A stretch of 64,000 nt of DNA from Pseudomonadota bacterium. Its GTDB lineage: Bacteria > Pseudomonadota > Alphaproteobacteria > RF32 > CAG-239. The position numbers and the translations under genes are program-made. The notes under the pieces were generated by a model. It was given only the letters and a program-made list of their open reading frames with translations, ran no database searches and was not told the origin of the DNA. The stretch spans positions 1 through 64,000 of the forward strand of contig CAKJXZ020000030.1 in the NCBI GenBank assembly GCA_918234285.1, written 5' to 3'. This document shows, piece by piece, positions 5,520-6,588 of this stretch; within the stretch, counting starts at the first letter, position 1; every line of letters starts with the position of its first letter.

Positions 5520-5880
5520 CGACGCTTAAATAAGTATTATGTAGCGAAAGCTCTATCGGCGTCCGACGCCGTATTAAGAATTATGTACCCGTAGCTCAAT
5601 TGGATAGCCGGAGGAAGAAAAACAACCTCAAAATGTTGTTTTTCGACGACGGGCGAAGTTCCCCAACGAGCAAGGAAGCGAGAGCGTCTCGCGGCGAGTT
5701 GATGGGAACGAGTGACCGAAGCTTAAATTTACAAATGAAAAATAAAGAAAGTAAATTTAAGCAAGAGGAGGACGACGGGCGAAGACCACTTAATGAGAGG
5801 GCGCGACAGCGACAACGAATTTAGTGGACGAGTGACCGAAGCGAGCCTAAGGCGAAGCAAGAAATTGGCCTCCGACGCCA
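5520..5880 (+). repeat. Upstream partial tRNA-Arg copies interrupted by two structured modules
   Basis: TAAGAATTAT-GTACCCGTAGCTCAATTGGATAG (tRNA 5' part at 5585-5607), then modules at 5608-5863, then the anticodon arm ATTGGCCTCCGACGCCA (5864-5880). A more degenerate copy lies at about 5520-5571. Confidence 0.85.
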
Positions 5881-5892
5881 TATAAGAATTAT

Positions 5893-5969
5893 GTACCCGT
5901 AGCTCAATTGGATAGAGTATTGGCCTCCGACGCCAAAGGTTGCGAGTTCGAACCTCGCCGGGTACGCCA
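5893..5969 (+). tRNA. tRNA-Arg (CCG)
   Basis: Cloverleaf GTACCCG/CGGGTAC acceptor, GCTC/GAGT D-stem, TTGGC-CTCCGAC-GCCAA anticodon arm, GCGAG-TTCGAAC-CTCGC T-arm, G-CCA; 77 nt. Confidence 0.97.
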
Positions 5970-6007
5970 ATAAAAAAATCCCCCACAGCGGGGATTTTTT
6001 TATTGGC
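5966..6007 (+). terminator. Terminator-like long inverted repeat after the tRNA
   Basis: GCCAATAAAAAAATCCCC-cacagc-GGGGATTTTTTTATTGGC. Confidence 0.8.
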
Positions 6008-6037
6008 ATATTCGGTGGTGGAGAACGAGCAACCTTT

Positions 6038-6588
6038 AGGTTGCGCGCGAGGATAAAAACAGCCTCTAAATGCTGTTTTTACCGCAAGCGGCGAAGTTTT
6101 CTTAATGAGCAAGGGATGCAAAGCGACCGCAGCGAATTTAGAAAACGAGTGACTGAAGCGACACGAATGTGTCGCAAGAACGAACCTCGCCGGGCTTAAT
6201 ATCTGAAAACAATCTCAAAATGTTGTTTTCGGGTATTAAGGCGAAGTGAACGAGCCGAGCTAACAAGCGATAGTGCCGTGCGGCAAGGCCGTGAACGAGT
6301 GACCGAAGCGACACGAATGTGTCGCAAGAACGAACCTCGCCGGGCTTAATATCTGAAAACAACCTCAAAATATTGTTTTCGGGTATTAAGGCGAAGTGAA
6401 CGAGCTGAGCTAACAAGCGATAGTGCCGTGCGGCAAGGCCGTGAACGAGTGACCGCAGCGAGCCACAGGCGAAGCAAGACGCCATAAAATCCCCCGATAT
6501 GGGGGAATTTTTTATTGGAATAACGCGAAGTGAGAAGAACCTCGCCGGAATAAAAAAAAATAAACCGGAACGATGAACGAGTGACCGC
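6038..6588 (+). repeat. Downstream tRNA-Arg 3' fragments interleaved with structured modules, including a 150-bp tandem duplication
   Basis: tRNA pieces AGGTTGCG (6038), CGAACCTCGCCGGG (6181, 6331), ACGCCA (6479) and GAACCTCGCCGG (6537). Core CGAGTGAC at 6146, 6296, 6446 and 6578. Confidence 0.9.

Follow-up and report, generated by a model that had tools for sequence, protein, structure and literature searches.

What is an intact tRNA gene doing in the middle of its own fragments, and what are the structured modules that hold these fragments apart? Both questions are raised by the surroundings of tRNA-Arg(CCG) in an alphaproteobacterial contig, of which we analysed a stretch of 64,000 nucleotides (the window). 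An initial annotation had listed tRNA-Arg pieces interleaved with modules and had offered two explanations—a tRNA-targeting element mobilised in trans, or ncRNAs co-transcribed with the tRNA. The pieces and modules that it listed are all present, within 1-2 nt; however, its inventory lacked the copy at 5541-5570, the antisense copy at 6004-6037, the remnant at 6516-6589 and the duplication of modules D and E. Also absent from that reading were the duplicated partial copies with their antisense copy, and a family-wide system of at least two module families, here called T1 and T2.

The array around tRNA-Arg(CCG)

The intact gene is the single tRNA of the window in both ARAGORN and Rfam searches. 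Partial copies of it lie on both sides, broken up by five T1 copies that we label A to E (Table 1). The three tRNA positions that had been proposed for the modules are borne out: A and B sit in the D-loop, C in the T-loop, and D and E in the acceptor 3' strand. The neighbours of the locus are GroEL, an unassigned ORF, L28, a VirB8-like protein, an Ig-domain protein and NrdD; as had been claimed, no integrase or transposase lies beside the array, and the nearest Phage_integrase match on the contig lies at about 79.5 kb.

Table 1. Features of the tRNA-Arg(CCG) array, with positions in the window.
Feature	Position	Strand	Basis
Degenerate oldest copy of tRNA-Arg 5' half (acceptor/D-arm remnant fused to anticodon-arm copy)	5541-5570	+	repeat families D5 (67%), D9
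Copy of 13-14 nt upstream of the tRNA plus tRNA positions 1-23, ending GGATAG in the D-loop	5571-5607	+	family D5
T1 module A, complete: P1 hairpin, GGCGAAG, helix P2, GAGTGACCGAAGC, long AT-rich P4 hairpin, GCAAGAG	5608-5767	+	alignment A1
T1 module B: core without P1 hairpin, abutting A directly	5768-5863	+	covariance model R1, 5778-5863, E = 7e-18
Anticodon-arm copy, tRNA positions about 27-42 (5864-5879), then the 13-nt upstream stretch of the real tRNA	5864-5892	+	family D9
tRNA-Arg(CCG), intact	5893-5969	+	ARAGORN; Rfam tRNA 67.1 bits
Intrinsic terminator, A-tract 5', T-tract 3'	5970-6003	+	inverted repeat I3; terminator listing gives - strand
Antisense (reverse-complement) copy of tRNA 3' part, directly after terminator	6004-6037	+	inverted repeat I4 (5935-5949 vs 6023-6037, 87%)
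Sense restart of tRNA 3' part, AGGTTGCG, variable region to T-stem start	6038-6045	+	by reading
T1 module C, within T-loop of pseudo-copy	6046-6180	+	model R1, 92.9 bits, E = 6e-22
CGAACCTCGCCGGG, tRNA positions 56-69 (T-loop 3' part, T-stem 3' strand, start of acceptor 3' strand)	6181-6194	+	families D7, D8
T1 module D, aberrant, P2 different, in acceptor 3' strand after CCGGG	6195-6330	+	model R1, E = 2e-12
Second 14-mer copy of tRNA positions 56-69	6331-6344	+	families D1, D8
T1 module E, tandem copy of D	6345-6480	+	model R1, E = 2e-9; family D1
Last tRNA bases CGCCA (6480-6484) and second terminator (6485-6518)	6480-6518	+	families D11, D15; terminator listing +
Array end: short antisense stretch, sense restart GAACCTCGCCGG (6537-6548), decayed module remnant ending GAACGAGTGACCGCC	6516-6589	+	family D4, sixth copy, 76%

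Upstream of the gene, 5575-5607 is 100% identical to 5883-5915, with tRNA positions 1-23 falling at 5585-5607, and three tRNA bases (AGT) are gone where modules A and B interrupt this copy. Module A is matched by covariance model R1 over 5652-5749 (E = 9e-11). The degenerate 5'-half copy is also found in the relatives L148 and L146, the latter carrying one complete module at the site of A and B, and the arrangement of A and B recurs at the tRNA-Phe locus. A reading of A and B as lying between a tRNA promoter and its tRNA was dropped; the conserved TTGACA element at 5443-5470 may just as well be the rpmB promoter on the opposite strand.

Downstream, the palindrome of the first terminator reaches into the tRNA CCA end. 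The antisense copy begins with TGGC, is diverged over the acceptor part and stops opposite the variable region, where AGGTTGCG pairs with it as a hairpin. Module C has its right junction at C56, with tRNA AGTT lost, and folds at -45 kcal/mol (z = -4.43), a value that none of 200 shuffles matched. A D-type module occupies the identical tRNA position in L146 and L148; the D and E units form a 150-nt tandem duplication of 97% identity (family D1). The second terminator is of the same type as the first, and a third terminator-flank copy is present in the final segment; the L146 array stops at the corresponding point, with the remnant absent.

Chance is no explanation for this array of tRNA pieces and modules: a 17-nt core with up to 3 mismatches occurs 5 times against 0.11 expected, a count reached in 0 of 100 shuffles, and GAACCTCGCCGG occurs 4 times against 0.01 expected. 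That the array is an artefact of assembling a repeat-rich region, which the initial annotation had allowed for, is extremely improbable. The region is indeed repetitive and lacks a spanning independent contig; however, contigs of another study reproduce every junction, and dozens of genomes that were assembled independently show the architecture. In run X1, which may be the source sample, Logan contigs tile the region and show no difference from it; contigs of X3 and X4, from the other study, cover individual junctions (for example 5815-5915, 5942-6103, 6144-6305 and 6294-6455) with 0-4 differences. The array as a whole is spanned by no single independent contig, and the number of D/E tandem units rests on this assembly. 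One X4 contig, which joins 5882 back to 5575, hints at a variant with one more upstream unit.

The T1 module

T1 is a real, conserved fold. From 5' to 3', a first hairpin leads into GGCGAAG; then come a covarying helix bearing a GNRA hairpin, CGAGTGACCGAAGC, a variable hairpin and, last, GCAAGA, the whole measuring about 130-165 nt. An alignment of 81 copies from many species, 73 of them distinct, has 86% of its cells paired, against 66% in shuffles and 27-38% in slid controls; two-sided changes occur in 14 of 17 pairs, and none of 500 shuffles attains the score of the real copies. Paired cells hold 26 G-U against 15 A-C combinations. The P1 hairpin forms in 72 of 80 distinct copies and shows numerous complementary triplets at its base.

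No Rfam family accounts for this fold, contrary to one possibility that had been raised: at the gathering threshold of Rfam 15 the tRNA is the sole match in the window, and at E <=10 over 5300-6800 only the tRNA passes, with no listed match lying mainly inside a module. Rfam 15 likewise gives no group I or II intron or self-cleaving ribozyme match for T1. Terminal inverted repeats common to T1 copies were not found; the inverted repeats that flank individual copies differ from one to the next and stem from the local tRNA or other local sequence. There is also no target-site duplication, in that the filled member of a filled/empty pair at tRNA-Thr loses two T and the tRNA-Asp loci swap out T54-T55.

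Distribution and association with tRNA genes

Model R1 finds 23 T1 copies in the source genome. T1 is present in 75 of the 119 genomes of its own family (44 are without a match to the model), at 0 to 22 copies per genome, and in only 1 of 149 genomes outside it; core sequence, fold and junction sequences are conserved in 16 of 19 genera. A plain dispersed repeat, another possibility raised at the outset, is not what we see—the modules occur genome-wide, yet they are strongly tied to tRNA genes. Of the 23 matches in the source genome, 14 fall no more than 500 nt from one of 8 tRNA genes, and on its strand, against a chance expectation of about 0.1; relatives have 46 of 67 copies within 1 kb of a tRNA gene, of 16 isoacceptors, and in five genomes of other genera all 8 copies are within 200 nt. 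T1 typically sits inside partial tRNA copies, most often in place of the T-loop TT. Non-tRNA sites are occupied as well, one of them in a prophage region. Pattern scans of IMG/VR viral contigs returned 8 and 16 stretches, none of them a true T1 or T2; among these stretches a single GC-rich sequence, present repeatedly, scored 17.9 bits with the covariance model, and nhmmer found none.

In its own genus, every tRNA-adjacent T1 copy lies on the tRNA strand (57/57), which fits the idea of co-transcription with the tRNA; that idea is weakened in other genera, where 4 of 8 copies run against the tRNA strand within a tRNA-derived framework of unchanged orientation. Among the sequencing runs listed as containing the stretch, none is an RNA run. 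The sole T1 copy of one further genome (G172) is likewise inverted. Among low-copy genomes, the unit at the tRNA-Gly(CCC) locus is kept in 4 of 5 cases, a retention that looks like vertical inheritance.

Repeating units and a second module family

In the wider layout, a tRNA and a terminator are followed by an antisense copy of the tRNA 3' part; next come a module-interrupted sense copy and a further terminator. This antisense-copy layout follows 20 of the 43 assessable tRNA genes of the source genome and is found in other genera too. No unit of the source genome has an uninterrupted T-arm copy; one such unit is present in L251, of another genus. Direct repeats of the tRNA 3' end (17-87 nt) bound each unit, and the units end in a full tRNA 3' end and a terminator. 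At tRNA-Lys(TTT), the terminator on the tRNA side is unlike that beyond the unit; the units at tRNA-Phe have two ORFs between them; and at tRNA-Ser(CGA), an integrase island sits between the tRNA and the unit, outside the unit itself.

Predicted folds allow the antisense and sense tRNA copies to pair. Across 70 units, the antisense copy carries 54 wobble-keeping and 41 disruptive transitions along with 183 transversions; these changes suggest that the antisense copy is under little constraint.

T2, the second module family, has the layout described for T1 and is characterised here by reading and by a MAFFT alignment of 12 copies. At three T2-bearing loci, Rfam reports tRNAs alone. A hammerhead identity for T2 was considered and rejected: GAUGAG and CGAAAG boxes are present, but the CU of CUGAUGA is absent, the helix order misfits in a by-eye comparison, and the Rfam hammerhead models give no match.

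Occupancy and insertion sites

Orthologous loci, whose comparison had been proposed, were found both empty and variably filled. At the rpmB/tRNA-Arg locus, 13 of 24 species are without T1 and 11 have one to five copies in differing order. Of 27 tRNA-Asp loci assessed by eye, 11 carry T1, 2 a partial T1 and 14 no module; among the latter, 4 retain tRNA-derived remnants and 10 are bare. Different T1 subtypes occupy one and the same position at the tRNA-Asp site. Truncated T1 copies are numerous, and presence and absence could partly stem from deletion instead of insertion.

T1 inserts at a precise site. In 9 species the right junction at tRNA-Asp is C56 of the T-loop without exception, and the inverted copies of other genera have unchanged junctions when read on the strand of T1 itself. 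In a tRNA-Thr(CGT) array, two units with equal flanks differ as GGGCG-TT-TGAC (empty) and GGGCG-[T1]-CGAC (filled). T1 is nested in T2 units at Thr, Val and Pro(CGG), and its positions comprise the D-loop and acceptor strand (in the window), the anticodon loop (in G057) and the T-loop.

Candidate partner enzymes

A co-occurring reverse transcriptase, recombinase or RAYT gene, for which the initial annotation had suggested a search by phylogenetic profile, did not emerge. Of 41 genomes in the genus, just 7 have RVT_1, and genomes with 11-20 T1 copies lack it; the profile of a small integrase family (a 204-aa recombinase, in 26 of 121 genomes) is uncorrelated with T1. The source genome, rated 100% complete, has no match to TnpB, Y1_Tnp, IS110, DDE_Tnp_1 or rve, and no RAYT (Y1/HUH) gene. 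It does have 12 Phage_integrase matches. The best match to the integron integrase model TIGR02249 is 82.8 bits, on XerC/D-like genes, against a cut-off of 265. Its one reverse transcriptase (343 aa) adjoins a 1157-aa repeat protein and an integrase, and looks like part of another system.

Two candidate routes were set aside. A guide-RNA reading—a TnpB/IscB-type RNA with a tRNA-matching guide, or an IS110 bridge RNA—fell with the failure to find TnpB or IS110 genes. Retro-duplication, by reverse splicing into the tRNA and self-primed reverse transcription at the terminator, was rejected on the rarity of RVT_1. Such a process would account for an antisense copy right behind the T-tract. An RNA-only route is further disfavoured because T1 copies are also found inverted.

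Weighing the explanations

The reading that we lean towards, tentatively and at somewhat below even probability, is that T1 is a non-autonomous, structure-defined insertion element targeting tRNA-like hairpin loops. We rate T1 as new; it matches no described RNA family (Rfam) and no described mobile-element family. The element would home to tRNA-like hairpin loops, the T-loop foremost, and replace, on its own strand, the TT in front of CGA, surviving only in partial, non-essential tRNA copies beside the intact gene. The repeating unit would comprise the terminator, the antisense tRNA 3' copy and the module-interrupted sense copy; units may multiply, shrink and swap modules by recombination between tRNA-derived repeats, which would account for the array around tRNA-Arg(CCG). 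Insertion probably works on a single-stranded, folded target and element (DNA or RNA) and presumably relies on a trans-acting activity. The sense-antisense-sense layout may have arisen as a by-product of insertion, if the palindromes of terminator and T-arm prompt fold-back or template switching; alternatively, it may mimic the target duplex in folded form.

Of the two original explanations we favour this one because occupancy varies between species at one locus, filled and empty units share equal flanks, T1 nests in T2 units, D-loop, anticodon-loop, T-loop and acceptor positions are all used, and no partner gene lies nearby. The insertion-element reading is weakened because the families searched yielded no enzyme, with RVT_1 rare and no TIR or TSD found; because a core and fold kept in 16 of 19 genera could equally mean a cellular RNA function; because the tRNA-Gly(CCC) unit looks vertically retained; and because the antisense copy shows little constraint. 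That cellular function is itself a somewhat unlikely alternative: T1 and T2 would be putative structured ncRNAs held in tRNA-like 3' ends (T-stem, acceptor strand, CCA, terminator), with tRNA maturation giving them defined, stable ends and the arrays representing duplicating and decaying gene families. The covarying multi-helix fold with GNRA loops on one strand, the excess of G-U over A-C, the widely conserved junctions, the co-orientation within the genus, the complete tRNA 3' ends with terminators and the Gly(CCC) unit of low-copy genomes all agree with it; however, it sits badly with inverted copies in a constant framework, with differing subtypes at one orthologous site where many species have none, with the family genomes that lack a match, with the many truncated copies, and with a strong terminator ahead of each unit and no evident promoter.

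The direct repeats that bound each unit point in another direction, namely that units are leftovers of tRNA-targeting integrative elements whose interior was deleted, the modules being attachment-site arms that trans integrases could still move. We consider this unlikely. The differing tRNA-Lys(TTT) terminators, as expected if an element brought its own, the ORFs between the tRNA-Phe units, a unit of about attachment-site size and the 12 Phage_integrase matches speak for it, and for tycheposons, partial tRNAs are described as remnants of integrations. Protein-binding arms, however, have no need of covarying helices and GNRA loops, and the only integrase island, at tRNA-Ser(CGA), went in between the tRNA and a unit that was already there and that therefore does not belong to the island; the presence of modules upstream of tRNAs as well as in the D-loop, the anticodon loop and the acceptor strand, both T1 orientations within one framework, and the lack of a true T1 or T2 in the IMG/VR viral contigs also count against it. 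Distinctly doubtful is a more radical proposal, that T1 and T2 form a new class of protein-less mobile nucleic acids. Here the unit (about 250-300 nt) would be an integrated rod-like single-stranded circle whose paired tRNA copies mimic the target tRNA-gene duplex, and the module, as a ribozyme or as an origin or recombination site of folded DNA, would serve catalysis or priming and direct insertion at the T-loop dyad with host enzymes only. Very unlikely, in our judgement, is passive template switching at terminator and T-arm palindromes, with the modules as ordinary intergenic repeats accumulating there; an inverted triplication bounded by palindromes and an antisense copy that evolves almost freely speak for it, but the layout recurs after 20 of 43 tRNA genes and in other genera, uninterrupted T-arm copies are missing from this genome (one occurs in L251), and the module junctions are precise and the layout consistently coupled to modules.

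Relation to known systems

Within the library searched, no paper describing modules in tRNA pseudo-copies was found; several known systems share parts of the architecture. Like tRNA-targeting integrative elements and their integrase-less remnants, among them islands, tycheposon remnants and cis-mobilizable elements, the units have tRNA 3' direct repeats flanking an insert, tandem arrays downstream of an intact tRNA and, at tRNA-Phe, cargo ORFs between repeats. In contrast to them, the insert here is mostly a gene-free, covarying fold of 90-165 nt, each unit holds an antisense tRNA copy and a pseudo-copy split inside the T-loop, and modules are also found upstream of tRNAs and in other tRNA loops. 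Judged by attL/attR, the bounding tRNA 3' repeats are present, no integrase lies in or beside the insert at the Arg locus, and the integrase island at Ser(CGA) is outside the unit.

The attP of CTX phage is a folded site. Integron attC sites are imperfect palindromes that keep structure while sequence varies, attC and CTX attP both, like our units, place the two strands of a target-like site close together, and integron arrays may likewise have no recombinase close by. In contrast to these systems, we found no integron integrase and recognised no R-box here, the palindrome arms copy the neighbouring tRNA, and a large module bulges from one arm and not from the tip.

REP/BIME, Rickettsia palindromic elements, Correia elements and MITEs are short, non-coding, multi-copy and structured, with copy numbers that vary between relatives, and T1 resembles them in size class, structure and variable copy number. 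T1 differs from all of these in having no shared TIRs, target duplication or RAYT/Y1 gene, and in its multi-helix core, conserved junctions and strict association with tRNA-derived sequence. Class C group II introns insert after terminators and group I introns in tRNA anticodon loops; T1 shares with mobile introns a duplication-free insertion at structured sites and a conserved RNA fold, but is far smaller, matches no Rfam intron or ribozyme, and was never seen in a functional tRNA, in a genus where RT is rare. Finally, tmRNA, viral tRNA-like structures and tRNA-linked small RNAs are larger structured RNAs with a tRNA-like 3' end. What both would share is a larger RNA, putative here, whose 3' end carries T-stem, acceptor strand and CCA; in our units, however, the acceptor complement is usually degenerate and the module may run opposite to the tRNA-like end.

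Implications

If T1 and T2 are mobile, they would be elements that recognise a universal RNA or DNA shape, the tRNA T-loop, and that spare an essential gene by residing in its partial copies, carrying no gene and belonging to no known transposon class. This would raise the question of how host functions alone can move nucleic acids, and a compact insertion tool guided by shape might follow. Should they be cellular RNAs instead, they would represent two new, widespread classes of structured RNA that carry tRNA-like ends, from a gut-bacterial family of which little is known. On either reading, the units explain assembly breaks at the tRNA neighbourhoods of these genomes and supply many extra tRNA 3' ends, where islands and prophages usually land. 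The T1-bearing family consists of uncultured gut bacteria.

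The tRNA-Arg(CCG) array

The window contains a single tRNA gene, tRNA-Arg(CCG), and pieces of it lie around the gene in tRNA order, as the initial annotation claimed and a re-reading of the sequence bears out. Among the pieces sit five copies (modules A–E) of T1, a folded module of ~130–165 nt; downstream, the order is AGGTTGCG, module C, CGAACCTCGCCGGG, module D, the CGAACCTCGCCGGG 14-mer again, module E, CGCCA, and a second terminator. That modules D and E form a 150-nt tandem duplication adds to the initial list, as do three features marked in the table. The array repeats are far more than chance gives, and module C folds much better than its shuffles (z = -4.43). 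The neighbouring genes are housekeeping or unrelated—GroEL, L28, a VirB8-like protein, and NrdD—and include no recombinase, in keeping with the earlier claim that no integrase or transposase lies nearby.

Features of the window, and of loci elsewhere in its genome (G000; C, contig; L, locus)
Feature	Position	Remarks
tRNA-Thr(CGT) array of T2-type units (part)	1-300	window starts inside array
tRNA-Thr(CGT) 3' pieces	40-58 and 216-234
T2 module	137-215	tRNA-Thr(CGT) array
Two terminators		tRNA-Thr(CGT) array
Truncated antisense copy	ending near 300	tRNA-Thr(CGT) array
Degenerate older copy of tRNA-Arg 5' half	5541-5570	added to initial list
tRNA positions 1-23 (behind a copy of the 13-14 nt preceding the gene)	5585-5607	upstream
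Two T1 modules	5608-5863	upstream
Anticodon-arm piece (followed again by the 13 nt preceding the real gene)	5864-5879	upstream
tRNA-Arg(CCG) gene	5893-5969	+ strand
Antisense copy of tRNA-Arg 3' part	6004-6037	directly behind terminator; added to initial list
Decayed array end	6516-6589	added to initial list
tRNA-Phe locus (L001)	C58:17000-24000	- strand
T1 in non-tRNA repeat (L010)	C36:21900-22500
T1 in non-tRNA repeat (L011)	C63:1400-1950
tRNA-Ser(CGA) island (L139)	C30:74000-84000
Reverse transcriptase locus (L143)	C27:1-12000
tmRNA	C3:130832-131147	flagged with asterisk by ARAGORN

T2 is a second module family with the same layout. Contig C22 has the window-start sequence at its end, and so the two contigs probably join there; the overlap also fits position 179.

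Fold of T1

The plan of T1 was taken from aligned copies, and its core was made into a covariance model, R1. The parts are, in order, a hairpin P1 (~45 nt; its base is variable, its top an A-run/T-run), GGCGAAG, a helix P2 enclosing a small GNRA hairpin, CGAGTGACCGAAGC, a hairpin P4 whose length varies greatly, and GCAAGA. In the core of 81 matches from relatives, 73 of them distinct, 86% of cells pair, against 66% in shuffles, and both sides change at 14 of 17 pairs; shuffles and slid registers come nowhere near this. P1 forms in 72 of the 80 distinct copies, and its complementary basal triplets come in more than 10 different versions. Among paired cells G-U outnumbers A-C (26 to 15), and the GNRA loops can be read as such on the T1 strand only—this points to the T1 strand as the one that folds, with RNA and single-stranded DNA not told apart. 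The initial annotation had recognized no known architecture here, and Rfam searches matched neither T1 nor T2 to any family.

Distribution and proximity to tRNA genes

R1 finds 23 T1 copies in the window's own genome, and finds T1 in 23 of 24 other sampled genomes of the genus. The module occurs in 75 of 119 genomes of the family and in 16 of the 19 genera of the order sample, against 1 of 149 genomes from other families of the class; copy number ranges from 0 to 22 per genome. The named records containing the motif are MAGs assigned to Alphaproteobacteria or Rhodospirillaceae by their labels; they come from the rumen and gut of ruminants and other animals. Pattern matches in other phyla were rejected by the model, save one weak match, and no true copy was found among IMG/VR viral contigs.

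Most T1 copies lie near a tRNA gene, and some lie elsewhere. In the own genome, 12 of 23 copies follow a same-strand tRNA gene at a distance of no more than 500 nt (Arg-CCG, Phe, Asp, Pro-CGG, Glu-CTC, Thr-CGT, Val-TAC, and Gly-CCC), and two more are just upstream of tRNA-Arg; by HMM search, 11 of 20 matches adjoin a tRNA, all on the same strand. Among relatives, at loci chosen by motif, 46 of 67 copies are within 1 kb of a tRNA, again all on the same strand, and 16 isoacceptors have T1 alongside; in five genomes of other genera all eight copies are within 200 nt. Several copies without a nearby tRNA still bear tRNA pieces or sit at the far end of an island. Copies away from tRNAs have their own flanking inverted repeat every time, and one is in a prophage region. 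At both L010 and L011 the same composite is seen: T1 directly after the hairpin of an ~85-nt non-tRNA repeat (TTCGTATTTACCGCATTCTCCGGATTTT ... GTGTAC-loop-GTACAC).

The general unit and T2

Reading the DNA after all tRNA genes of the own genome gives a general unit: the tRNA CCA end, an intrinsic terminator, an antisense copy (reverse complement) of the tRNA 3' part starting TGG, a short turn, a sense restart, a module, the remaining tRNA 3' part to CCA, and a terminator. Units are often doubled or tripled, with a truncated antisense copy closing the array. The antisense copy follows 20 of 43 assessable tRNA genes and appears to evolve under little constraint; terminators within units are alike between loci, and at tRNA-Lys(TTT) the gene-adjacent terminator differs from the one after the unit.

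T2 is shorter than T1 (70–100 nt), has several subtypes, and follows ~15 tRNA genes of this genome (e.g., L175-L187, L141, L002, L008). It lies exactly between A58 and A59 of a pseudo T-loop (GGTTCGA, module, AATCC), with its own conserved GNRA hairpin showing compensatory changes and boxes that include AGCGAAAGG, GGTCGCC, GCGATGAG, and AGCGAAGGAC.

Evidence for insertion

Comparison of orthologous rpmB/tRNA-Arg loci, suggested in the initial annotation, reveals variable occupancy: 13 of 24 species lack T1 and show another terminator behind the gene, and 11 have one to five T1, upstream and/or downstream, in varying order. Of 27 tRNA-Asp loci read by eye, T1 (several subtypes) is present in 11 and partial in 2; 4 have tRNA-derived remnants and no module—three an antisense copy, by itself or plus a short sense restart, one (L246) an antisense copy fused to a sense 3' piece—and 10 have nothing. 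Where the tRNA-Asp T-stem is full, exactly T54-T55 give way to T1, and all nine cases that could be read have C56 as their right junction. Within the Thr array, T1 is the sole difference between two units (GGGCG-TT-TGAC vs GGGCG-[T1]-CGAC), and three loci have T1 nested within T2 units. An upstream pseudo-copy (a partial gene copy beside the intact gene) in genus g18 carries T1 in its anticodon loop; in other genera and in family f25 T1 is often inverted within a sense pseudo-copy. Read on its own strand, inverted T1 has the same junctions (G-run, T1, CGAAC), which fits the palindromic TTCGAA of the T-loop.

Recombinases and islands

No recombinase was found whose presence tracks T1; reverse transcriptase occurs in only 7 of 41 genomes of the genus, and none of five transposase families searched (TnpB, Y1, IS110, DDE_Tnp_1, rve) was found in the own genome. 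Nor was any circular or excised form of T1 found, and a search for RNA runs containing the stretch gave none. The only reverse transcriptase of this genome (343 aa) adjoins a 446-aa integrase and a 1157-aa protein whose repeats are of collagen and BNR type, and may belong to a diversity-generating retroelement on an island. A 7.7-kb island separates tRNA-Ser(CGA) from its old 3' end, and a 17-nt repeat of the 3' end of this tRNA bounds the island, which encodes a 693-aa DUF6538/Phage_integrase protein, a 204-aa tyrosine recombinase, a MORN-repeat protein, and an ankyrin protein.

Interpretation and precedents

We tentatively favour T1 as a non-autonomous insertion element, defined by its structure, whose targets are tRNA-like loops and which persists in partial copies of genes, because of its anatomy, insertion polymorphism, nesting, and two orientations. 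The initial proposal of a non-autonomous tRNA-targeting element is thus the one favoured here. That T1 and T2 instead form a family of cellular RNAs whose ends are tRNA-like seems to us unlikely, though worth keeping in view. Units as remnants of integrative-element attachment sites are more doubtful still: at tRNA-Ser(CGA) the old 3' end is followed by a terminator, an antisense copy, and T1; this unit therefore predates the island and is no part of it. Passive template switching as the source of the units is quite improbable, and assembly artefact scarcely credible; contigs of a second study reproduce every junction of the array, with none spanning the whole.

Among the closest precedents is the folded attP of CTX phage, with both target strands side by side. 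Integron attC sites likewise set both strands of the target side by side; they have a defining integrase, whereas no integron integrase was found in this T1 genome. Partial tRNAs are known as integration scars from the tycheposon preprint; as described there, those scars lack a structured module, an antisense copy, and a split T-loop, all of which T1/T2 units have. Given these differences, and since a search of the literature accessible to us found no description of modules within tRNA pseudo-copies, we rate the arrangement as new.

Further observations

CGAAG is a recurrent motif at the junctions of T1 and T2 alike. At the tRNA-Phe locus, five T1 copies are accompanied by two ORFs between units (428 and 331 aa), without a match in Pfam or PADLOC. 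One unit there has a Phe-type left flank and, as right flank, the tRNA-Ala(CGC) 3' end with one mismatch; by its flanks it is a recombinant of units from two tRNA loci. The asterisked tmRNA may be the permuted two-piece form, the usual one in Alphaproteobacteria. The stretch GAACGAGTGACCGAAGC, conserved in T1, is very similar to the antisense copy of the T-arm and the turn behind it that follow tRNA-Asp in many species (at L224, among other loci), and duplication of such a motif may be how T1 grew. In one species, a minimal unit at tRNA-Asp consists only of this stretch, a hairpin, GCAAGAC, and a tRNA 3' piece.
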